Positions 1 through 10,778 of a stretch of 10,863 bases of DNA are shown piece by piece (positions within the stretch are counted from its first letter, which is position 1; each line of letters begins with the position of its first letter). Origin of the DNA: Promethearchaeota archaeon (lineage in GTDB: Archaea > Asgardarchaeota > Hermodarchaeia > Hermodarchaeales > Hermodarchaeaceae); NCBI GenBank assembly GCA_048939625.1, contig JBHLPH010000044.1, positions 1 through 10,863 on the forward strand, in the 5' to 3' direction. The notes under the pieces are model-generated. The model was not told the DNA's origin, made no database searches, and saw nothing but the letters and a program-made list of their open reading frames with translations. The position numbers and the translations under genes are program-made.

Positions 1-350
1 GTGGAAATATCGATTTGTCGCACTATGAGATCTGGCATGAACCGGTTTCGGAGTACTTCAGCCACATCGACGGCGCGACTGATAGCTCGACCCCGGGCCT
101 TGATCACGAGTTCCTCAGGATTTCGGTTGAGTTGAGTGACACAGGCAGTGATATAACTCATCAAAGGTTTGCTGCCAACGAACACAACGCTTTCATCACG
201 TCGTGACTTGGGAGCTTCAGCCTTTGCTTCAGCTTTAGGCTTTGTTTCTTTTTTCGGAGCCTTTTTCGGCTTTTCCTCTTCAGCCTTAGGCTCTTCCGCT
301 TTGGCTTCTTCGGTTTTTGTAGTCTCAGCAGATTCAGTTTCTTTAGACAT
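1..350 (-). CDS. albA: DNA/RNA-binding protein Alba with ~52-aa Lys/Glu/Ala/Pro-rich N-terminal extension (3' end runs off the window)
   Basis: Manual translation of the minus strand from ATG 350: [116 protein letters not shown]... It has the Alba hallmarks VFVGxKPxMxY and [27 protein letters not shown]-like motif at 366-362; alternative in-frame ATG at 368. Confidence 0.95.
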
Positions 351-484
351 TTTGGGAGTTTCCTCCATCTCTGGTTTTGTTGTATGCTGGTTTCACCAGT
401 TGTCCAGTGACGAGTTACAGAAAGGTCTAGGACCTCCTCCTGTAACTTGGTGAGGAGAACCGATACCCGCGTATTAACTTTAAA
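351..484 (-). promoter_or_regulatory. Putative alba promoter (TTTAAA 484-479) and structured ~105-nt 5' leader
   Basis: TATA-like TTTAAA at 484-479. Hairpin AGUUACAG/CUGUAACU (447-440/420-413) enclosing AGGUC-CUA-GACCU. Small hairpin CUGGUGAAACCAG (399-387). GGAG-GAAA-CUCC hairpin (366-355) covering the SD. Confidence 0.5.
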
Positions 485-531: not shown

Positions 532-1647
532 TTATTCGCCTTTCTTTTGATAAAATAGCTTATACACTATCAAAACAATGACACCGCCAACAATCGGAAT
601 AAGCATACTCAGGTGAATAAGCTGGTCAGGTGTAAATGGGAATCCCGTGGGAGTGAAAGGAGTAGGAGTCATTAATTGCGTTTCCATGAAGGCTTCGATG
701 ACCCGCCCTACTGCTTCCAGAGAATCGGGAGAACATTTATCGGGAGTGTCCTCTAGGGTGTGCCAGTATGGGTAGGAGAAATCAATGATATCGACAGCAG
801 GAATCCCTGCGGATAAGAAGGGGCGGTGATCATCAATTACATAGAGACCTGCCGAATTCAGGAAAATATCTTCGTAATTGAGATCAGCAGCAAGTTGCCA
901 GATCGAGTCCACAAGTGCTGGTGTGGATGACCGTTCTTTTGGAAGCTGAAGATCCGCATCACCCATCATATCCAATAATATTGCTGCTTGAATATTCACT
1001 TTTTGAGTTTGCGTAAGACTTTCGACAAAGTGTGTTGACCCAACAATCCAATCCCACCCGTTATAATCTCCTGAATCTTCAGCATCAACAAATAACAGCA
1101 TTGTAACTGCTTGTGCTTCATCAGGTAGTACTTCAGCCAACTCTAATAAGTTGGCAACACCACTCCCACCATCATTTGCCCCAAGAATGGGACGTGACCG
1201 ATTTAAGGGGTCGGGGTCATAGTCAGCAATTGGTCGGGTGTCATAATGAGCTAAGAGCACATAATGCGGGGATACCAGTTCACCTGCCATGATGTTCCTA
1301 AGCGGCGTGTTCAAGTAGGTCCACGTTTGTGTCTGAACGGACCAATTTAGGGATTCTAGAGTAGCAATGATATAATCTCCACAGGCCGTGAGGTTATCTG
1401 ATCCAGGTGGACGAGGACCAAAATCACATTGCGCTTCAACGTATCCGAATGCTCGAGTGCCATTAAACTCCAAAGTGACTTGGAGTGGATGTGTAGAAGT
1501 ATCAATTTCTTGACACGGCATCGTGGAATTGCTCACAGCGATTTTGACTAGTGAGATTATCAACAAAAACAACAAGATCAGGACAAGTAGTCCAATTTGA
1601 CGCGGCTGGACACGGTTCATTTGTCGATTCGATTCCTGGGTCAACAT
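532..1647 (-). CDS. M28-family zinc enzyme, glutaminyl-peptide cyclotransferase (type II QC)-like, with N-terminal signal/TM and C-terminal TM anchor
   Basis: Motifs GPRPPGS, LAHYDTRP, GANDGGSGVA.LLELA, LFVDAEDSG, ILLDMMG, DDHRPFL, YWHTLEDTPDK. Hydrophobic segments at both ends, the C-terminal one followed by QKKGE. The ORF-track start at 1797 overlaps the divergent gene, so ATG 1647 or 1620 is more likely. Confidence 0.85.
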   Translation of the reverse strand: MLTQESNRQMNRVQPRQIGLLVLILLFLLIISLVKIAVSNSTMPCQEIDTSTHPLQVTLEFNGTRAFGYVEAQCDFGPRPPGSDNLTACGDYIIATLESLNWSVQTQTWTYLNTPLRNIMAGELVSPHYVLLAHYDTRPIADYDPDPLNRSRPILGANDGGSGVANLLELAEVLPDEAQAVTMLLFVDAEDSGDYNGWDWIVGSTHFVESLTQTQKVNIQAAILLDMMGDADLQLPKERSSTPALVDSIWQLAADLNYEDIFLNSAGLYVIDDHRPFLSAGIPAVDIIDFSYPYWHTLEDTPDKCSPDSLEAVGRVIEAFMETQLMTPTPFTPTGFPFTPDQLIHLSMLIPIVGGVIVLIVYKLFYQKKGE

Positions 1648-1673
1648 ACAATCAGAAATAAAGTCAGAAAACC

Positions 1674-1688
1674 CGAAACCTATAAAAG
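1674..1688. promoter_or_regulatory. BRE/TATA element between divergent genes, possibly bidirectional
   Basis: CGAAACC-TATAAAAG on + (TATA at 1681-1688, ~40 nt before ATG 1729). The same bases read TTTTATA on -, ~35 nt before ATG 1647. Confidence 0.55.
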
Positions 1689-1728
1689 TACTGGACAGGA
1701 GCCTCAGTTTTGCCGTTAGGTGGCTTTC

Positions 1729-2115
1729 ATGTCCAAAGACGCTGATGAGTTGAAACGCATTCGGGAACGTAAGATACAAGCTCTTCTCAAAGAGCAAGAG
1801 CGCCGTGATGCAATCAAAGATGAAGTCGCCGAACGGGAAAAAGAACGTGAAAAAATCGTTGCAGCACTGTTTCTACCTGAGGCTGTTTCCTACCTGGAAG
1901 AATTGAAAAAGACCAAACCCACAATCGCCTATCGAATCGAGGATTTAGCAATCACGCTCTATCTCCGTAGACAGCTCATTAATAGAATTCCTAAAGAAGG
2001 CGTCATCTTAGTTCAGCGGAAACTTGAAGGTGTGGAACCAAAGATCACTGTGAAACGCCGAGGCGAAGATGAGGTTAGTTTCTATGAAGCAGTCAAGAAG
2101 GATTTGGCTGAGTAA
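1729..2115 (+). CDS. PDCD5/TFAR19-family double-stranded DNA-binding protein, divergent
   Basis: N-terminal DELKRIRERKIQAL, central LFLPEAVSYLEELKKTKPTIAYRIEDLAI (cf. the family pattern ILTPEARERL..L...KPE.A..VE..LI) and KITVKRR. AGGTG SD at 1718-1722 favours ATG 1729 over GTG 1720. Confidence 0.75.
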   Translation: MSKDADELKRIRERKIQALLKEQERRDAIKDEVAEREKEREKIVAALFLPEAVSYLEELKKTKPTIAYRIEDLAITLYLRRQLINRIPKEGVILVQRKLEGVEPKITVKRRGEDEVSFYEAVKKDLAE

Positions 2116-2780: not shown

Positions 2781-2951
2781 AACATTAAGCGTGTTCTTAT
2801 CCTTTCTACCTCCTAATTAAAAAGGACTGGTAATACCTTCAGAATCAATTATCAAAGACCTTAGGATCATTTTCTTCGGGTCAGGCAGTAAAAGGAGAGA
2901 GCTTAAATCAGTAAAATGCCTGCTAGAAGAGATGGGGCAATGCTGGTCGGA

Positions 2952-4193
2952 ATGCGCAAGTACCGTATTTGGTTCATTGCATCAGTTCTATTTCTTCTCC
3001 TCCTGGTAGCTATGTCGCTACCTCGGGTTTCAGCATTCCAGTATGTCCATCATTGGCGAGTCAATTTCTCTGGTTCTCTATATGTGTCAGGAAACCAATC
3101 TCTGCCAGTCTCACCATTCTGGAGTTATATCGGCAATACATCCTGGCAAACATGTGAGCAGAAATTCTTCGCAATGACGCAAAACAACGAAACAATTGTA
3201 GCTACTGGGATAGGGATTGATGACGATGGTAATCCACGTTTGTCTCTTAACTTAACGTCTCCTCTTGCCCCCCAAGATGTTCTTATTTGGGAAGAAGAAT
3301 GGATGTTTACAGTATTAGATCATCGTTCTCTTTTACCTCAGATTTCGGTTACTCAGTCTGGAAGTCTAGTTGAAGTTGAAGAGCGCATCGGCTCAGAAGA
3401 TTTCGATCTATTTACCCATAGAACTCCATTATGGGACACAACCAATACAAGCTTAACGGATTTGGCTCAGACAATCCGGGATGGCCTTCCTGAAGAAAGA
3501 CAAGATAATGTGCTTGCATTAATCTATGCTTCAATTCAATGGATTCAAGCCAATATCTTTCAATCAAGTGGAGTTACAGATCCTCAATACCCAGAAGAGC
3601 TCATCATTAGCCAAAATGGGGATTGTGATGACCAATCTAATCTTCTCATTTGTTTATTGCGAATATTTGGTATTCCTAGTTATTTGATGACTGGTCATTG
3701 GTTTCAAGAAGGAGCACGGACATATGGTTTCGTTTGGGGCTCTGTTGCCAACAATTCCTATCGGTATGTGGACTTTCAAAACGCCGTTGGTCATGGGTGG
3801 GCGATGGTTTTTGTCCCTCCATGGGGTTGGCTGCCTTTCGATTTACTATCTGTAGGAGTTGGTGTGAACCCAGCTAACACATACGCGGACTCCCTATATG
3901 CTTCAGATCGACCGTTTGTCTCCTTGTGGCAAATTGTGGCAAGTGACTATATTGGTGAAATGAGAACTGAACAGACCAATTTGTTCACGTATCAACTGCA
4001 TCGAACAGAGTACGAGGATTGGACCTCACTCGGCTCGGTTCCCATTGTTGATGCAGAATACCTTGCAGCCAATATGGTAACACTAATTGCCCTCATTATA
4101 ACACTGGGTTCTCTAACATTCTTGGTTGGACTTGCGATTCGACGGCATTCACAGGAGGACCCAAACCGTGACTCCACAGCTCCCACCCAGTAA
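2952..4193 (+). CDS. Transglutaminase-like (Cys-His-Asp) domain protein, exported and membrane-anchored
   Basis: GDCDDQSNLLICLLRIFGIPS (catalytic Cys) and GHGWAMVFVPPWGWLPFD (His and Asp). Signal peptide MRKYRIWFIASVLFLLLLVAMSLPRVSA and a C-terminal TM followed by RRH. Start is uncertain (2916, 2940 or 2952); TATA-like CTTAAAT at 2902-2908 favours the later two. Confidence 0.85.
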   Translation: MRKYRIWFIASVLFLLLLVAMSLPRVSAFQYVHHWRVNFSGSLYVSGNQSLPVSPFWSYIGNTSWQTCEQKFFAMTQNNETIVATGIGIDDDGNPRLSLNLTSPLAPQDVLIWEEEWMFTVLDHRSLLPQISVTQSGSLVEVEERIGSEDFDLFTHRTPLWDTTNTSLTDLAQTIRDGLPEERQDNVLALIYASIQWIQANIFQSSGVTDPQYPEELIISQNGDCDDQSNLLICLLRIFGIPSYLMTGHWFQEGARTYGFVWGSVANNSYRYVDFQNAVGHGWAMVFVPPWGWLPFDLLSVGVGVNPANTYADSLYASDRPFVSLWQIVASDYIGEMRTEQTNLFTYQLHRTEYEDWTSLGSVPIVDAEYLAANMVTLIALIITLGSLTFLVGLAIRRHSQEDPNRDSTAPTQ

Positions 4194-5937
4194 GCTCTAC
4201 ACAGACTATGTATTTGACGGAAAAAAAACAGCGCTTCAGTTCTGGGGACCCATACCCCGGAACATCAAAGAGGCTATCAGCCTGAGCAGTCCACTCATTC
4301 GCGCTTATAGAGAAAAACAACCCCTCTTTTCATTGGAGCGAATGAAAACTCTTTGCGACGTAATTAGAGAAACCCACCAAGCGGTGAACATGTTAACACC
4401 TCAAGTACAGGACCAGCTCCGCAAATTCGAAGAACAAGGAGCCGTGATTGAAGCTGGACACCAACCCGCTTTACTAGGAGGCCCCGGCTTTGTCATCAAC
4501 AAAATCGCAGCGATATCAAAAATTGCCTCCCTCACAAACGCTACACCAATTATGTTTGTTGGTGATCACGACCAGGAACAAAAGGAATTAACAGTGGTTC
4601 ATCTCCCCAGTCCCGGACCACGAGGGCTCACATTTTCTTTACCAATTAATCGTGAGTATAGGATGTCACCAATGCATCTGTTACCTTTGCCATCTAAAAA
4701 TTGGTTAAAACCAGTGATTGAAAAGGTATCCTCAACTTATCACGAGCTCGTAGCAAGCTCTGCGAAGAATAAACTCAACTTATACGAAGAACGAGCAACT
4801 ATTATTGCAAAAATAATTGAACAAACTTTTAACCAAGCCCGAACAATTGCTGATTGGACAATCCGCCTTTGGATGCAAATTATCAACCAATCACAAGATT
4901 CGGGCGTTTTGTTCCATGTATTTTCGAACCCATCGGTTCGAGAGCTAATGCTACCAGCTTTTGAATATCTCCTCACTGAACCAAACCGACAAAAATTCAT
5001 CCAAGCGCTAAATCAGAGTGCTGAAAAACTTGAACACCTTGGTTATGAACCAGGGATTGGCAGAAGAACACCCGATTATGTACCGTTTCATCTGGAGTGT
5101 CCTACCAAAGGGTGCCATCGAACACGCCTAGATCCAACTCTCTCACTGAACACTAAAAAAACACAAACCACAATTTCTGCAACCTGTCCGAAATGTAAAA
5201 ACACACATCAACTAGAAATCAAATCAACCAACCCGGATTTAACAGAATGGAAACTATATCTCTCGCCACGTGTCGACACCCGAGCATTCCTGGTACAAAG
5301 TTATACACCAGTGATTCTTCATGTGGGAGGAGCGGGAGAAACCAGTTATCATGCTCAAGTCTCGCCAGCTCTCCAGGCGAATAACAGTATTGTTCCAATT
5401 TTTTTCCGTTATACACGGCTTTATTACGAAAACCCTTGGACGACCCGCACTGCTCAACGTCTCACCAAAGAGCAGTTAATCCCATTAAGCCATAAAGAAT
5501 TGAAACACTTTGAAACCACCATTAAAACTGGTTATGCCAAAGAGGATAACGGGGTTATTCACTCTCTTTTTGCAGCCAGTGAAGAACACATCATGGAAAC
5601 AGCTGAACGCCTTATTAGAACTGAAACCCAATTAGAAGACGAAAGACATGAAATTATCCTGCAACAACGAGAAAGTGCTGATTCCACTCAAAAGAAGGAA
5701 AGCCAAATACAGATTGGAGTTCTCACACGCCGACGCCAGGTTCTGCAGACGTATCTATCACAAATGTTCGGACGTTACTCCGTTGAGCGCTTAGGCCAAG
5801 AGGTGAGTTTCATCTGGGTTGATGCCTCGATGTCCATGGACCCACGACTCCATTTCAGTAGACTCTGCAATCATTATCAGGAATATACCCCAGCGGCAGC
5901 GACCGCCTATCTCACGGATCTACCTTTCCAAAACTAG
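4168..5937 (+). CDS. bshC: Bacillithiol biosynthesis cysteine-adding enzyme BshC-like protein with Zn-ribbon insertion
   Basis: SKLYTDY, VIEAGHQPALLGGPGFVINKIAAI, MFVGDHDQE and LSPRVDTRAFLVQSYTPVILHVGGAGETSYHAQ correspond to the BshC motifs TGQQ..L.GGP.Y...K, EDHD and SPNV..RP..Q....P...Y.GGPGE..Y.AQ. C-terminal coiled-coil-like region; adjacent to bshA and bshB. GGAGG at 4154-4158 supports GTG 4168. Confidence 0.82.
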   Translation: MTPQLPPSKLYTDYVFDGKKTALQFWGPIPRNIKEAISLSSPLIRAYREKQPLFSLERMKTLCDVIRETHQAVNMLTPQVQDQLRKFEEQGAVIEAGHQPALLGGPGFVINKIAAISKIASLTNATPIMFVGDHDQEQKELTVVHLPSPGPRGLTFSLPINREYRMSPMHLLPLPSKNWLKPVIEKVSSTYHELVASSAKNKLNLYEERATIIAKIIEQTFNQARTIADWTIRLWMQIINQSQDSGVLFHVFSNPSVRELMLPAFEYLLTEPNRQKFIQALNQSAEKLEHLGYEPGIGRRTPDYVPFHLECPTKGCHRTRLDPTLSLNTKKTQTTISATCPKCKNTHQLEIKSTNPDLTEWKLYLSPRVDTRAFLVQSYTPVILHVGGAGETSYHAQVSPALQANNSIVPIFFRYTRLYYENPWTTRTAQRLTKEQLIPLSHKELKHFETTIKTGYAKEDNGVIHSLFAASEEHIMETAERLIRTETQLEDERHEIILQQRESADSTQKKESQIQIGVLTRRRQVLQTYLSQMFGRYSVERLGQEVSFIWVDASMSMDPRLHFSRLCNHYQEYTPAAATAYLTDLPFQN

Positions 5938-5987
5938 GACATGGTAAGCATATTTCTACTCTTTTCCAATTCGTCCATTTGATGAAA

Positions 5988-6500
5988 ATGGATTTTCTTG
6001 ATGTTATTAAAGGTCGACGAAGTATACGAAAATACCTTCCCAAGGAGGTTGAAAAGGAGAAGATTGACACAATCCTTGAAGCAGCCCAATGGGCTCCTTC
6101 AGCCTCAAATAAGCAACCTTGGCATTTCGTTGTTGTCCAAGACTCTGATACACGCACACGCCTTAGTGAATTACACACGCATGGCCGATTCATGAAGCAG
6201 TCGCCCATCGTAATCGCTGTCTTAGGAAACCCAGCAGTTCATCCGAAATACTACCTATGTGACCCACATCAAGCTGTGCAAAACATTATACTTACCGCCT
6301 ATTGGCTCGGATTAGGATCTTGTTGGATGGGAGTTCGAGGAGCGGACTTTGAAAAGGATATGAAAGAAGTTCTTGGAGTACCTGAAGAATTCACCATTCT
6401 CTGTACAATCTCGATTGGATACCCCGATGAAAAACGAGAAAGTAGTCGTCAACCAATAAACGAATTAGTGTCATGGGAACGTTACGGGAAGCAAGGTTAA
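5988..6500 (+). CDS. Nitroreductase family FMN-dependent oxidoreductase
   Basis: IKGRRSIRKY, ILEAAQWAPSASNKQPWHFVVV, QNIILTAYWLGLGSCWMG, ISIGYP. Alternative starts at 5979 and 5982. Confidence 0.93.
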   Translation: MDFLDVIKGRRSIRKYLPKEVEKEKIDTILEAAQWAPSASNKQPWHFVVVQDSDTRTRLSELHTHGRFMKQSPIVIAVLGNPAVHPKYYLCDPHQAVQNIILTAYWLGLGSCWMGVRGADFEKDMKEVLGVPEEFTILCTISIGYPDEKRESSRQPINELVSWERYGKQG

Positions 6501-7603
6501 CTCTGCAATATCGAGTCATAGATTGATTCATATTGGGGTAAGACTTTTTCAGCCGTGTGATTCTGGAGGATAGTTTGTCGGGCAGCTCTACCAAGAGTTC
6601 CGGCTAGGTTTGAATCGGTGAGAATTGCATAGAGCTTTTCAGCCAGAGCATCAATGTCTCCAAAGGGTACAAGTAATCCATTTTTCCCATCCTCGATAAT
6701 CTCGGGAATGCCACCCACGGATGTGGCAACAACAGGAAGACCACAGCTCATGGCTTCCAGAAGCGAAAGGGGAGCGCCTTCTAATTCAGAACTTAACCCG
6801 AAAGCATATGCGCAACGAAGGTATTGATACACATCGCGTTTGAATCCAGGACATTTAACCCGATTGTTCAGTTCGAATTTTCGAATGAGCCGATCAACCT
6901 CAGGTCGAGTTGGACCATCACCAATAAGTAGAAGCTCAACGTCTGGGATATCATCAGCAATCTGGGCAAATGCAGTTACTAAGTCATTGACCCGCTTAAC
7001 AGGACGAAAATTAGACACATGGACAAGTTGACGTTTCTCCCCCTCTAAATTAAATTCACAAGCATTGGGTTTGAATAGTGCGGGATCGGTGAAGTTGGTA
7101 ATCGGTTCGATGGCGCAGCGAACGCCTAAGGTTTGTTCCGCTGTTTGACAAATGTGATTGGTCACACAGGTTACAGCATTTGCTGCCTCAACAGCAAACC
7201 GAGTTGATGGCTGATAAGCTGGATCGGCACCCAAAGTGTGGACATCGCTTCCATGTAATGTAACAATATAGGGAACCCCAGTCATTTGTTGGGCAATGAA
7301 AGCAGATACCGCATGAGGAATAGCATAGTGGACATGTAAAAGGTCCAAATGGTGTTTCCGAACTACTTGCGCCATTTTTGAGGCAAGGGCAACGGTGTAC
7401 GGAGGATACCGGAAGAGGGGATATTCAAGCACATCAACGAGGTCCACTTTCACATTCTCATATCGACCTTCCTGGAGCTCAAAAGGTACCTCATAGGTAA
7501 TGAACCGTACCTCATGACCACGTTTTGCGAGTTCAACTCCCAATCGGGTACCTAAAAGTCCTGAGCCCCCAACGCCGGGGTACACTGTGATTCCAATTCG
7601 CAT
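6497..7603 (-). CDS. bshA: N-acetyl-alpha-D-glucosaminyl L-malate synthase BshA (GT4 glycosyltransferase)
   Basis: BshA-specific motifs MRIGITVYPGVGGSG, YPLFRYPPYTVALASKMA, LDLLHVHYAIPHA, TLHGSDV, HVSNFRPVKRV, plus the GT4 motif EGAPLSLLEAMSCG. Confidence 0.93.
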   Translation of the reverse strand: MRIGITVYPGVGGSGLLGTRLGVELAKRGHEVRFITYEVPFELQEGRYENVKVDLVDVLEYPLFRYPPYTVALASKMAQVVRKHHLDLLHVHYAIPHAVSAFIAQQMTGVPYIVTLHGSDVHTLGADPAYQPSTRFAVEAANAVTCVTNHICQTAEQTLGVRCAIEPITNFTDPALFKPNACEFNLEGEKRQLVHVSNFRPVKRVNDLVTAFAQIADDIPDVELLLIGDGPTRPEVDRLIRKFELNNRVKCPGFKRDVYQYLRCAYAFGLSSELEGAPLSLLEAMSCGLPVVATSVGGIPEIIEDGKNGLLVPFGDIDALAEKLYAILTDSNLAGTLGRAARQTILQNHTAEKVLPQYESIYDSILQS

Positions 7604-7717
7604 TGTTTATCCTGTGGCATGCTAGCGTTCCTGCCCAAATGTGTTGTGATGGCAGAAAAATGCCCTCTGAGGTAGTGTTAGCAAACCTTTTGGTAAGATA
7701 AAGAGGTACATTTAGCT

Positions 7718-8392
7718 ATGCCAAAAGTACCACTCAAGCGTCTGCTAGTTATTGCAGCGCACCCAGATGATGAAACCTTTGGTTGTGGAGGCACTATTGC
7801 CCAAGAAGCCAATCGTGAAGCTGAAGTGACAGTCTGTTGCCTTACAGGCACTCCTACTCGACATAAAGAATTAGCAGCAGCTTGTGAAATTATCGGGGCT
7901 AAAGTAATTGCGCTGAAGGGAAAGGATCTACAACTTACAGTTCCTGAAGTGACCAACGCCCTAATTCCTATTATCCAAGAAACCCAACCAGAAGTCATTG
8001 TGTCCCACAGCGCAGATGATTACCATCCTGATCACAAGGTTGCCCATCAAGCAGTCAAACGAGCAGCTGAGTGGGCAGGCCATTCTACAAAGTATAAGAA
8101 AAAGGCATGGCGCCCAAAACGCTTGTTCAGTATGGAAATTAATACGCTCCTAGCCTACCCCACACGGTTGGTTGATATTTCCGAAATTATTGAATTGAAG
8201 ACCCAGGCAATCTCCGAGTACCAAAGCCAACTAAAAAAAACTGACGAATACTATCTGATGTTTAATCTACAAAAAGCAAGGCTACGCGGTATACAAGCCG
8301 GTTGTGAGTATGCTGAAGCATTCCGTGAAGAACTTTTGCCAGTTCATGGTCCCTTCTACCATCCTACTCCAATTGCGAAAACAATTTTCTAG
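7718..8392 (+). CDS. bshB: PIG-L/LmbE-family deacetylase, probable bacillithiol deacetylase BshB
   Basis: LVIAAHPDDETFGCGGTI, R..E (RHKE), DYHPDH, VDISE...K..AI..YQSQ, YAEAF. Divergent from bshA, with a GAGGT SD at 7703-7707. Confidence 0.85.
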   Translation: MPKVPLKRLLVIAAHPDDETFGCGGTIAQEANREAEVTVCCLTGTPTRHKELAAACEIIGAKVIALKGKDLQLTVPEVTNALIPIIQETQPEVIVSHSADDYHPDHKVAHQAVKRAAEWAGHSTKYKKKAWRPKRLFSMEINTLLAYPTRLVDISEIIELKTQAISEYQSQLKKTDEYYLMFNLQKARLRGIQAGCEYAEAFREELLPVHGPFYHPTPIAKTIF

Positions 8393-8400
8393 CTTCGCTT

Positions 8401-9420
8401 TTAATCGAGCGGTGGTCGTATCCGGCTTCGAGATTGAGTGATCTGCTTCACCCAAGTTTCATACTCGGAACTAGGAGGATGATCTTGGTACAGATTTACT
8501 CGGTCAGCTTCAAGTTGAAGATAAGGACGACCAAGTACTTCCGCGATTGTCAGGAGCTGATTCCCTTGTTTACTTGCATGCTGCTGAATTGGTCCTAACC
8601 AGTCATGCCACTCTTTATCCCGTAACAAATGGTGGTCAATAATAATCAAAGGGATGTGGTTAGTAAGGAAACGAAGAACGCCAGCAGCTTGTGTTAGAAT
8701 CTCAGGAGCCACGCGATCAGGAACCAAGTAGGTAGGAGGACCTGCAAGAAGAAGGATGTCGGGGTGTTGCCTGATAATCCAGCTAGCAGTTTCTTGTTCC
8801 ATGGGCCCTTGCACATCAGAACCATGGACCATTGAAAACCCGCCACACCGAATTGCGGTCATAATCACCCACCCGAGTTTTGTCCCACTTTCCCCATGGG
8901 GAACTGCTGGGGAAAACCGAATCATTGTGTTCCCGATTTTTGTGGCTTTTCCATCTGCGTAGACCACTTCAGTTGCAACTTTTCGGGCTTTCCGAACAAA
9001 ATTATATCCACGACCTTGTTGGGAGTAATTGATTCGCTTGCGAATATCCTTACACCAGATATGCTTCCCCGCGTAAAGGTGGTTTGCATCATCGGGGTTG
9101 GACCAAAAATAAGCGTAATTTCGGTAGAAGGGCATAAAGTGATCATGGTGGAAATGTGATATCACGATGTGATCGACTGATTGAGCAGTAGATAGTATTT
9201 GTCTTCGAATAGTCTTCAACAGGAGATATTCCTTGGGATGGGGGTGTAATTGGTCACGAAACCCAAGGGCAACCCCTGGGTCAATTAAAATAGAAGCATC
9301 CGAGGTGTTGACATGTGTAGCAAGGCTTCGTAGACCTAGACTTTCAGCTGCAATAGGTGTGATTTCCAATTCACTACTGATTTGGATTTTACCAGATTTT
9401 GAAGGTTTTATTTCATCCAT
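8401..9420 (-). CDS. Archaeal MBL-fold metallo-hydrolase, UPF0282-like
   Basis: PIAAESLGLRSLAT, ILIDPGVALG, PHPKE, ISHFHHDH, INYSQ..RG, FSPAVPHG...KLGWV, SDVQGP, GPPTYL, IDHHLLRD. Confidence 0.85.
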   Translation of the reverse strand: MDEIKPSKSGKIQISSELEITPIAAESLGLRSLATHVNTSDASILIDPGVALGFRDQLHPHPKEYLLLKTIRRQILSTAQSVDHIVISHFHHDHFMPFYRNYAYFWSNPDDANHLYAGKHIWCKDIRKRINYSQQGRGYNFVRKARKVATEVVYADGKATKIGNTMIRFSPAVPHGESGTKLGWVIMTAIRCGGFSMVHGSDVQGPMEQETASWIIRQHPDILLLAGPPTYLVPDRVAPEILTQAAGVLRFLTNHIPLIIIDHHLLRDKEWHDWLGPIQQHASKQGNQLLTIAEVLGRPYLQLEADRVNLYQDHPPSSEYETWVKQITQSRSRIRPPLD

Positions 9421-9490: not shown

Positions 9491-9567
9491 ATCAGAAAAA
9501 ATTGTGACTCAAATCAGAAAAAACAGTGAAGTGATGGAGTTCGAGGCGCAAAGGTGCCCCGAACCCC
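9491..9567 (-). terminator. 3'-UTR hairpin plus two oligo-U tracts downstream of the bactofilin-like gene
   Basis: 12-bp stem GGGGUUCGGGGC/GCCUCGAACUCC (9567-9556/9547-9536) whose two G-U pairs form only on the minus strand. Followed by two copies of TTTTTTCTGAT (9523-9513, 9501-9491). Confidence 0.6.
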
Positions 9568-9584
9568 GAGGCTGTGGGCTTATG

Positions 9585-10778
9585 CTATTTGATCAAGTCT
9601 TCAGGCGTTGGAAGTTTTTTGACCTGTTCAGGTTCTTTCCCATAATGAACGCCTGGTTCGGTTTCTAAACGCTCTGTGTAGAGGACCTCACCTTCCACCA
9701 TAACATCGCGTTCAATGTAGATATCACGCCCATAGAGGTTTTTCACCCGAGCCCGTTCTTCCACACGGATGGAATCACCATAAAACGATGCTCCACGAGC
9801 TTTTTCTCCAACGATAATATCTGAGCCTTCAACAAAACCTGAAACTTCACCCCGTCGACCAATACGGAATTCACGTTCTGCAATAATATGAAAAGCCCGA
9901 ATAGACCCACCCACATCTATTCGTGGACATTGAATTTTTTGTCCAGCCTGTAAAGATCCACCAATGTCAATCAGTCCACCAACTATCAAATCGGTTCCAA
10001 TTACAGCACTTCCACCAACGTCGAGTTTTTCGCTTAGGAATAAAGATTTCTCAGCTTTAATAGCGCCACCACAATCAATTGACTTGCCTTTCGCATCTCC
10101 AGAAAATTTTGCTGCGCCACCAGCGTCTACTTCTTCGAAGGTCAGGTCACCTTCGCTCTTGAAGCTGCCACCAACGTCGACTTTGATTATTTTGGAATTG
10201 GGTCCTACGACTACAGCACCGCCAACGTCTATGTCGCCGATTTCAATGGCGCCCTCTGCTTTGAAAGATCCTCCGACATCGACTTTTCCGATGGTTCCAG
10301 TGTTGCATTTAGCAGCTCCACCTACTGATAATTTTGTGGAGTCAATATTTCCTTCTATTTTGACTGCTCCGCCAACCCGAATTTCTTCAACTTTGGCGTC
10401 TCCAACAACTTTTAGGGCTCCACCGATGGAGACCAGGGTGGCGGTTAGATTTTTCCCAACTTTGAGAGCAGCACTAATATCAATTCGATTTGCTGTTGCT
10501 GATCCCGTGACGTCTAGTTGCCCGTGGCGAACACTGACAGCTCGTGCGATGTTCAAGTCGCCGTGGATTTCCGTGGTATTATCGCCGTCAATTTCAAGAT
10601 ATTCAGCCTTCAAAGAACCTTCAACTTCAACATCACCACGGATGGTAAGGCGACCGTCCACGGTGATGGTATCACCTTTTTCGGGGAGGATTCGACGACA
10701 GTTTTTAAGTTCCACATCACCTTTGACGTGTCCTAATGTGACTTCTTGTTCATTTTTGTACTGAAGTTTATCACCCAT
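9585..10778 (-). CDS. Long bactofilin-like (polymer-forming cytoskeletal) beta-helix repeat protein
   Basis: ~17-aa periodic repeats such as IGKVDVGGSFKAEGAIE / IGDIDVGGAVVVGPNSK / IIKVDVGGSFKSEGDLT. C-terminal GDSIRVEERARVKNLYGRDIYIERDVMVEGEVLYTERLE resembles Bacillus YhbE/YhbF-type bactofilin ends. GGAGG SD and a TATA box support ATG 10778 (397 aa) rather than 10856. Confidence 0.7.
   Translation of the reverse strand: MGDKLQYKNEQEVTLGHVKGDVELKNCRRILPEKGDTITVDGRLTIRGDVEVEGSLKAEYLEIDGDNTTEIHGDLNIARAVSVRHGQLDVTGSATANRIDISAALKVGKNLTATLVSIGGALKVVGDAKVEEIRVGGAVKIEGNIDSTKLSVGGAAKCNTGTIGKVDVGGSFKAEGAIEIGDIDVGGAVVVGPNSKIIKVDVGGSFKSEGDLTFEEVDAGGAAKFSGDAKGKSIDCGGAIKAEKSLFLSEKLDVGGSAVIGTDLIVGGLIDIGGSLQAGQKIQCPRIDVGGSIRAFHIIAEREFRIGRRGEVSGFVEGSDIIVGEKARGASFYGDSIRVEERARVKNLYGRDIYIERDVMVEGEVLYTERLETEPGVHYGKEPEQVKKLPTPEDLIK

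Follow-up and report, generated by a model that had tools for sequence, protein, structure and literature searches.

The window analysed here, 10,863 nucleotides in length, is a whole contig (JBHLPH010000044.1, 10.9 kb; G000:C70) from a Promethearchaeota archaeon of the family Hermodarchaeaceae (assembly GCA_048939625.1). It holds homologues of bshA, bshB and bshC, the genes of the bacterial pathway to bacillithiol, a protective sugar-cysteine thiol. The contig belongs to a 2.31-Mb metagenome-assembled genome (MAG), for which completeness is 87.6% and contamination is estimated at 6.3%. A bshC-like gene and a small nitroreductase gene run towards bshA, and a bshB-like gene points away from it (Table 1). 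A check of the open reading frames (ORFs) found the three biosynthetic genes and the nitroreductase gene where a preliminary description of this DNA had placed them. As also described there, the nitroreductase gene and bshA are convergent and their stop codons share the letters TTAA at 6497-6500, and bshA and bshB are divergent with 114 bp between them. Both of their promoters presumably lie in this spacer. An AAGAGG motif resembling a Shine-Dalgarno sequence was found about 10 nt upstream of the bshB ATG. A scan of the window with promoter and terminator consensus sequences gave nothing above chance; the consensus is bacterial and does not apply to an archaeon.

The three bsh proteins and the neighbouring genes

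BshA scored 373.6 bits on the TIGR03999 model (cut-off 273.7), in a match that spans positions 1-374 of the 375 in the profile. bshA is the sole gene of the genome above this cut-off, which was exceeded in only two of 14 control genomes. The protein has the two-domain GT4 architecture (Glyco_transf_4 and Glycos_transf_1). It matched BshA of Bacillus anthracis over its full length (residues 1-367; 2JJM and 3MBO, E ~1e-91), and BshA of Bacillus subtilis over the same residues (5D00, E 1e-83).

The bshC-like gene was read from the GTG at 4168, because homologues of 589 aa align from residue 1 or 2; a Shine-Dalgarno sequence, GGAGGA, lies 9 nt upstream (4153-4158). Its product scored 60.2 bits on PF10079, for which the cut-off is 27. 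A single-sequence phmmer search of the PDB did not find BshC, and the Pfam model of the BshC C-terminal domain had no sequence match in the protein. A profile built from 27 archaeal homologues returned a single PDB match, B. subtilis BshC (4WBD, E 7e-15). The AF2 model of the protein had a pLDDT (predicted local distance difference test score) of 93.5 and matched 4WBD in Foldseek with an E of 2.5e-20. Structural alignment of model residues 4-584 to residues 11-539 of the 4WBD chain with VIA-align gave a Z of 35.0 and a root-mean-square deviation of 3.7 Å over 483 residues. Long helices at residues 442-534 of the model form the C-terminal coiled-coil or long-helix domain. Conserved residues were compared across 66 canonical and 32 archaeal-type members of the family, and the protein agreed with the majority of the canonical representatives at Q99, K112, D135, G292, F307, S366, P367, G388, G390, Y394 and P410. 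The BshC-like protein thus belongs firmly in the BshC family, where it is a member of an archaeal zinc-ribbon subfamily.

The ribbon of this subfamily is a four-cysteine insertion that sits between two stretches aligning to 4WBD and is modelled as small beta-strands (residues 308-352). Three of the cysteines (C311, C340 and C343) never vary among the 27 archaeal homologues, and the fourth, C316, shows at least 90% conservation. A four-cysteine motif was also found at the equivalent position in scattered distant representatives of the BshC family, and on that ground the ribbon was rejected as an archaeal novelty. One genome of the genus carries the bshC-like gene as two separate ORFs, 300 and 324 aa long (G006:C27:7090-8945; L050:6001-7844); a frameshift, an error of assembly or decay to a pseudogene may lie behind the split.

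The BshB-like protein belongs to the PIG-L family (PF02585, 84.9 bits). Its top match in the PDB was the BshB1 structure 6P2T (E 5e-16), with archaeal diacetylchitobiose deacetylases close behind. When the residue roles reported for BshB (metal ligands, catalytic Asp, Arg53 and Arg109; PMC4101496) were transferred to this protein, the HxDD+H metal site was intact, with H15, D17, D18 and H106 in place of His12, Asp14, Asp15 and His113. The metal ligands are H15, D18 and H106, and the catalytic Asp (D17) and Arg53 (R48) were also kept. In Hermodarchaeota, Thorarchaeota and other Asgard families the gene adjoins bshA; in Bathyarchaeia the two lie within about 3-4 kb of each other. A second PIG-L paralogue of 272 aa with a DPHPDH motif is found on contig C25 of the genome (L020:1105-1923, minus strand). 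It scored 123.7 bits on TIGR04001, the BshB1 model, which is above the in-cluster protein and below the cut-off of 182.5; a Bca-like amidase is one possibility for it and an unrelated deacetylase another.

The nitroreductase is a generic member of the small FMN (flavin mononucleotide) nitroreductase family (PF00881, 113 bits), and its best PDB relatives are putative NADH oxidases or nitroreductases (3E10, E 5.6e-29). The gene likelier starts at the ATG at 5982 or 5988 than at the first position of its ORF. It was found between bshC and bshA in six of ten related genomes (G003, G009, G001, G012, G007 and G005). In the other four (G014, G010, G018 and G017) it is missing from the cluster with nothing in its place, and no orthologue above 40% identity turned up elsewhere in them. 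The preliminary description had counted the nitroreductase as part of the cluster. Its absence from the four genomes led us to reject it as a conserved part of the pathway or a stand-in disulfide reductase, and to class it as an optional insert.

Table 1. Annotated features of the window, numbered from its first nucleotide
Feature	Position	Strand	Basis
Alba	3-368	-	ORF and family match
M28 peptidase	532-1797	-	ORF and family match
E2F/DP-like winged helix	2185-2703	-	ORF and family match
Transglutaminase-like protein	2916-4193	+	PF01841 transglutaminase core
bshC-like, 589 aa, putative cysteine-adding enzyme	4168-5937	+	PF10079, fold
Four-cysteine (zinc-ribbon-like) insertion in BshC-like	5098-5196	+	C311, C316, C340, C343
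Small FMN nitroreductase-family gene, 172-173 aa	5979-6500	+	PF00881
bshA	6497-7603	-	TIGR03999
bshA/bshB divergent spacer, 114 bp	7604-7717	.	Read from sequence
bshB-like PIG-L/LmbE zinc deacetylase, 224 aa, putative GlcNAc-malate deacetylase	7718-8392	+	PF02585
MBL-fold protein, archaeal PRK04286 family	8401-9420	-	Family match
Bactofilin-domain protein, 423 aa	9585-10856	-	Family match

Upstream of bshC lies the transglutaminase-like gene, whose product has a hydrophobic C-terminus and whose end overlaps the start of bshC by 26 nt. It was found upstream of bshC in every Hermodarchaeota genome examined. Since it always precedes bshC and overlaps its start, the two genes may be co-transcribed. 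The MBL-fold and bactofilin-domain genes adjoin bshB across the whole family, and this neighbourhood is probably plain synteny.

Archaeal relatives and shared inheritance

The block alba-M28 peptidase-E2F-transglutaminase-bshC-[nitroreductase]-bshA-bshB-MBL-bactofilin is syntenic in all 14 genomes of the genus and in two of the four genomes of its sister genus; the contigs that carry it are as long as 232 kb. The BshC-like protein is present in the same proportions, 14/14 and 2/4. The archaeal host named in the preliminary description is upheld by this ten-gene block.

Hermodarchaeota, Thorarchaeota and Bathyarchaeia all keep the three genes together, each lineage in a gene order of its own, and clusters occur in further Asgard families as well; this argues for a functional unit. 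With arrowheads for the direction of transcription, the Hermodarchaeota order is bshC> [nitroreductase>] <bshA bshB>, the Thorarchaeota order <bshB bshA> bshC>, and the Bathyarchaeia order bshB> amidohydrolase> bshC> <Trx-like <bshA <DinB_2/MST-like. In all three lineages BshA scores above its cut-off and BshB and BshC below theirs, the BshC orthologues of Thorarchaeota and Bathyarchaeia reaching 56-62 bits on TIGR03998. Among GTDB species genomes the archaeal-type subfamily was found in these three lineages and in three bins labelled as bacterial. The latter (L056, L059 and L061; labelled Krumholzibacteria, Desulfaltia and Patescibacteria) carry the bathyarchaeal type and gene order on contigs of 2-8 kb, and are probably mis-binned archaeal DNA. 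Across the phylum, 174 of 400 genomes have a match to PF10079, which passes the cut-off in 156, and 43 of the 85 genera are represented.

Several relatives of the cluster have features of their own. The cluster of one Bathyarchaeota genome (L067) contains an Amidohydro_2 gene (4968-5912), a gene for a Thioredoxin_9-fold protein (7719-8312) and a DinB_2/MST-like gene (9537-10010). The last of these belongs to the family of the bacillithiol and mycothiol S-transferases. These embedded genes are candidates for thiol-using partners, and the presence of the thioredoxin-fold and DinB_2/MST-like genes inside the cluster fits a thiol cofactor. The closed Bathyarchaeota chromosome CP070640.1 (L051 and L057) has two bshC-bshA pairs about 1.4 Mb apart. 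In Thorarchaeota a gene of the phosphoglucosamine/phosphomannomutase type (L086:2156-3535) lies just upstream of bshB-bshA-bshC; it would fit a role in the supply of UDP-GlcNAc (uridine diphosphate N-acetylglucosamine).

The preliminary description had called BshA very canonical and BshC much more diverged, and had suggested different histories for the two. The first statement holds: BshA lies above its cut-off with 373.6 bits, and the BshC-like protein, with 65.2 bits on TIGR03998, falls far short of 265.8. The second was not borne out. Separate trees of BshA and BshC, built on the same 48 loci and not rooted with named bacteria, were congruent, and each recovered every lineage as one group. 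Both separated Hermodarchaeota, Thorarchaeota and Bathyarchaeia from the other Asgard families (SH-aLRT, the Shimodaira-Hasegawa-like approximate likelihood ratio test, 100) and grouped families f13 and f18 (SH-aLRT 98). The nearest relatives outside the family were Bathyarchaeia for both proteins (50-54% identity for BshA, about 33% for BshC). On these congruent trees and common nearest relatives, separate histories for bshA and bshC were rejected. Branches were about twice as long for BshC as for BshA, and within the genus identity was 60-78% for BshC and 80-95% for BshA. The contrast between the two proteins is real, and its cause is unequal rates on a shared history rather than separate origins. 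BshA, BshB and BshC appear to have been inherited or transferred together, with BshB and BshC evolving faster than BshA. We hypothesise that BshA and BshB act on universal metabolites and that BshC may have adapted to a possibly host-specific cysteine donor.

Predicted pathway and alternative products

We put the probability that the cluster makes bacillithiol or a close analogue in this Hermodarchaeota archaeon at about 65%, and a bacillithiol-type product, as the preliminary description had proposed, is the best reading of the genes. In the first predicted step BshA, judged by its equivalog-level membership, would join UDP-GlcNAc and L-malate to give GlcNAc-malate. The PIG-L zinc deacetylase would then convert GlcNAc-malate to GlcN-malate (glucosaminyl-malate), as suggested by its intact catalytic residues and the conserved adjacency to bshA. 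The third step is assigned to the BshC-like protein on the strength of its BshC fold, its conserved core residues and its strict co-clustering with the other two genes: it is predicted to attach cysteine to the free amine, and the product would be Cys-GlcN-malate, which is bacillithiol, or a compound very similar to it. For the bacterial BshC, cysteine addition has not been reconstituted in vitro and the cysteine donor is unidentified (PMC5790435). Gamma-glutamylcysteine ligase (GCS2) was not found in the 87.6%-complete genome, which we counted in favour of a bacillithiol-type thiol.

A number of observations weigh against this assignment. BshA alone passes its TIGRFAM model; the BshB-like protein reaches 105.7 bits on TIGR04001, and the BshC-like protein, which PF10079 and the 4WBD fold place with BshC, misses the TIGR03998 cut-off as given above. 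A word-indexed profile search reached three canonical BshC proteins and no more. An exhaustive profile search also set the BshC-like proteins apart as a discrete subfamily, with only 58 of 3047 family matches at E<=1e-30 and a sharp score gap between these 58 and canonical BshC. In the BshB-like protein of the window Arg109 of the DRHPDH motif is replaced by Tyr102 (DYHPDH). The same Tyr was found in all BshB orthologues examined from Hermodarchaeota, Bathyarchaeia and Thorarchaeota, and in Thorarchaeota His110 and Asp112 are changed too. Arg109 binds substrate, and mutagenesis of Bacillus BshB has shown its importance for GlcNAc-malate turnover (PMC4101496). Both the low BshB score and the loss of Arg109 had been overlooked in the preliminary description. 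The literature adds that in archaea bacillithiol has so far gone undetected (PMC7278568), and that a 2025 survey of RefSeq, with strict BLAST criteria and Chlorobaculum queries, found no archaeon with a complete pathway (PMC12719100).

The shortfall of the window's proteins also stands in contrast to a canonical operon in another Asgard family, f21 (bshC-bshB-bshA, L128:7287-10684). That operon has the phylum, the three functions and the tight clustering in common with the window, but all its proteins pass the NCBIfam cut-offs (BshC 386, BshA 406 and BshB1 237 bits). Its BshB keeps Arg109 in a Bacillus-like DRHPDH motif where the window has Tyr, and its BshC sits on a very long branch apart from the window's type. 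Asgard archaea thus hold at least two types of BshC and BshB, which suggests more than one acquisition of bsh genes.

The dedicated disulfide reductase and the bacilliredoxins of the bacillithiol redox system were also searched for in the 87.6%-complete genome. No orthologue of Bdr/YpdA was found, the best match to TIGR04018 scoring 78 bits against a cut-off of 339.9, and no orthologue of BrxA/B or BrxC (no match to PF06491 or TIGR04019); this too counts against the bacillithiol assignment. The best TIGR04018 matches were three TrxR (thioredoxin reductase) paralogues. Elsewhere the genome has two stand-alone DinB_2 proteins, a Thioredoxin_9 protein and a CoADR/Nox-like flavoprotein. Since Bdr and the bacilliredoxins were not recognised, other proteins would have to recycle the thiol and put it to use. 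Speculatively, these might be the three TrxR paralogues, the CoADR/Nox-like flavoprotein, the two DinB_2 proteins as putative S-transferases and the second PIG-L protein.

The same divergence of BshB and BshC could instead mean that the archaeal-type enzymes make a distinct conjugate, for example one in which GlcN-malate carries a modified cysteine or a different amino acid, or one made with another cysteine donor that is adapted to archaeal partners; a new thiol or aminoacyl-sugar would then take the place of bacillithiol itself. BshB with Tyr for Arg109 and the zinc-ribbon BshC might on that account be an archaeal adaptation of the last two steps, to an archaeal-specific activated cysteine donor or to a non-bacillithiol thiol. 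The two proteins have co-diverged while BshA is still canonical, the Tyr occurs in every archaeal-type BshB with the further changes at His110 and Asp112 in Thorarchaeota, and the BshC-like proteins are a separate subfamily with a conserved four-cysteine ribbon. The donor substrate of BshC is also unidentified even in bacteria (PMC5790435). However, with an equivalog-level malate glycosyltransferase in BshA, a change in the GlcNAc-malate scaffold is unlikely, and the BshC-like protein retains all the family-wide core residues. The ribbon is present in scattered distant members of the BshC family and need not signal new chemistry, and faster evolution of BshB and BshC in the genus explains the low scores without a change of function. 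We regard both the distinct conjugate and the adaptation of the last two steps as rather unlikely.

It is more doubtful still that the cluster does not make a redox thiol at all, with GlcN-malate or a derivative in another role, for instance as a compatible solute or as a precursor for the envelope or for glycosylation, and the BshC-like protein as a ligase of unrelated specificity. This would agree with the search that found no Bdr or bacilliredoxin orthologues, with the anoxic sediments in which the hosts live and where a dedicated oxidative-stress thiol would seem less needed, and with a BshB-like protein that is nearly as close to archaeal diacetylchitobiose deacetylases as to BshB1. Against it stand the strict co-clustering of bshC with its two partner genes, seen in two phyla and in more than one gene order, the thioredoxin-fold and DinB_2/MST-like genes within the bathyarchaeal cluster, and the BshC fold and core residues that were kept. 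Bacterial anaerobes such as Chlorobiota, moreover, use bacillithiol derivatives (PMC12719100).

One might suspect that a piece of bacterial DNA was mis-binned into an archaeal MAG, which would make the archaeal cluster an artefact, from a window that is an entire 10.9-kb contig of a MAG with some contamination and from the ~50% identity of its BshA to Bacillus BshA, but this is refuted by synteny, the block being flanked by Alba and an Asgard E2F/DP-like gene and conserved in 16 of 18 family genomes, and the closest relatives of BshA and BshC beyond the family are Bathyarchaeia and Thorarchaeota, not bacteria; we give mis-binning practically no weight.

Significance and comparison with known pathways

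The preliminary description had allowed that genomic predictions of the pathway in archaea might already exist, and it was right to do so. In a 2020 review, Rawat & Maupin-Furlow listed 39 archaeal InterPro matches each for BshA and BshC, mostly from Asgard archaea, and only two YpdA homologues (PMC7278568). NCBI records already name archaeal homologues BshA and BshC. The literature is inconsistent in this respect, as the 2020 review has Asgard BshA and BshC homologues and the 2025 RefSeq survey has no complete archaeal pathway. The locus and its relatives in three archaeal lineages show all three genes to be present, clustered and co-inherited, and the BshB and BshC that they encode form an archaeal type of their own. 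In this locus Hermodarchaeota provide one example of a previously flagged archaeal form of a known pathway; the prediction is not new and the gain is incremental.

Should the product be confirmed, abundant sediment archaea and the Asgard group would join the organisms with bacillithiol-type redox chemistry, and the divergent BshC could help to find the cysteine donor of the BshC reaction. We know of no bacillithiol- or mycothiol-type low-molecular-weight thiol that has been detected in any archaeon. If the last two steps were instead adapted, archaea, including relatives of the eukaryotic ancestor, would have a principal low-molecular-weight thiol of their own that is as yet undescribed, and a second, independent handle on the BshC reaction would be available.

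The nearest known system is the bacterial bacillithiol pathway of BshA, BshB1/BshB2 and BshC, as found in B. subtilis, B. anthracis, Staphylococcus aureus, Deinococcus, Chlorobiota and Bacteroidota. The window has the same three enzyme families with the same inferred order of reactions, and shares with it the whole-length BshC fold, the PIG-L metal site and an equivalog-level BshA. It differs in that BshB and BshC lie well under the curated cut-offs, that Arg109 is replaced by Tyr and that BshC has the conserved four-cysteine insertion. The host is an Asgard archaeon in which Bdr, BrxA/B and BrxC were not found, and the pathway is predicted here from the genes.

Mycothiol biosynthesis follows the same logic, with a GT4 glycosyltransferase (MshA), a PIG-L deacetylase (MshB) and, last, an enzyme with a class I aminoacyl-tRNA-synthetase-like fold (MshC) that attaches cysteine to the amine of glucosamine. 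On the mycothiol models the window's proteins reached much lower scores (60 bits for MshA and 46 bits for MshB). The acceptor in mycothiol is inositol phosphate and not malate, and MshC is a paralogue of cysteinyl-tRNA synthetase and not a member of the BshC family. Next after 4WBD among the structural neighbours of the BshC-like model came a class I lysyl-tRNA synthetase, 1IRX, whose Z of 21.1 over 298 residues is far below the 35.0 of 4WBD. Only the Rossmann-type catalytic half aligns, at 13% identity, and the BshC-like protein has no sign of the tRNA-binding domains.

The closest counterparts are the archaeal-type clusters themselves. Identity to the proteins of the window was 49-54% for BshA, 41-46% for BshB and 28-34% for BshC in Bathyarchaeia, and 42-45%, 36-43% and 29-33%, respectively, in Thorarchaeota. 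The Hermodarchaeota cluster is without the thioredoxin and DinB genes of the Bathyarchaeia cluster and has its own transglutaminase-like gene overlapping bshC. The clusters of the window, Thorarchaeota and Bathyarchaeia have common subfamilies of all three proteins and, in BshB, a common Tyr in place of Arg109.

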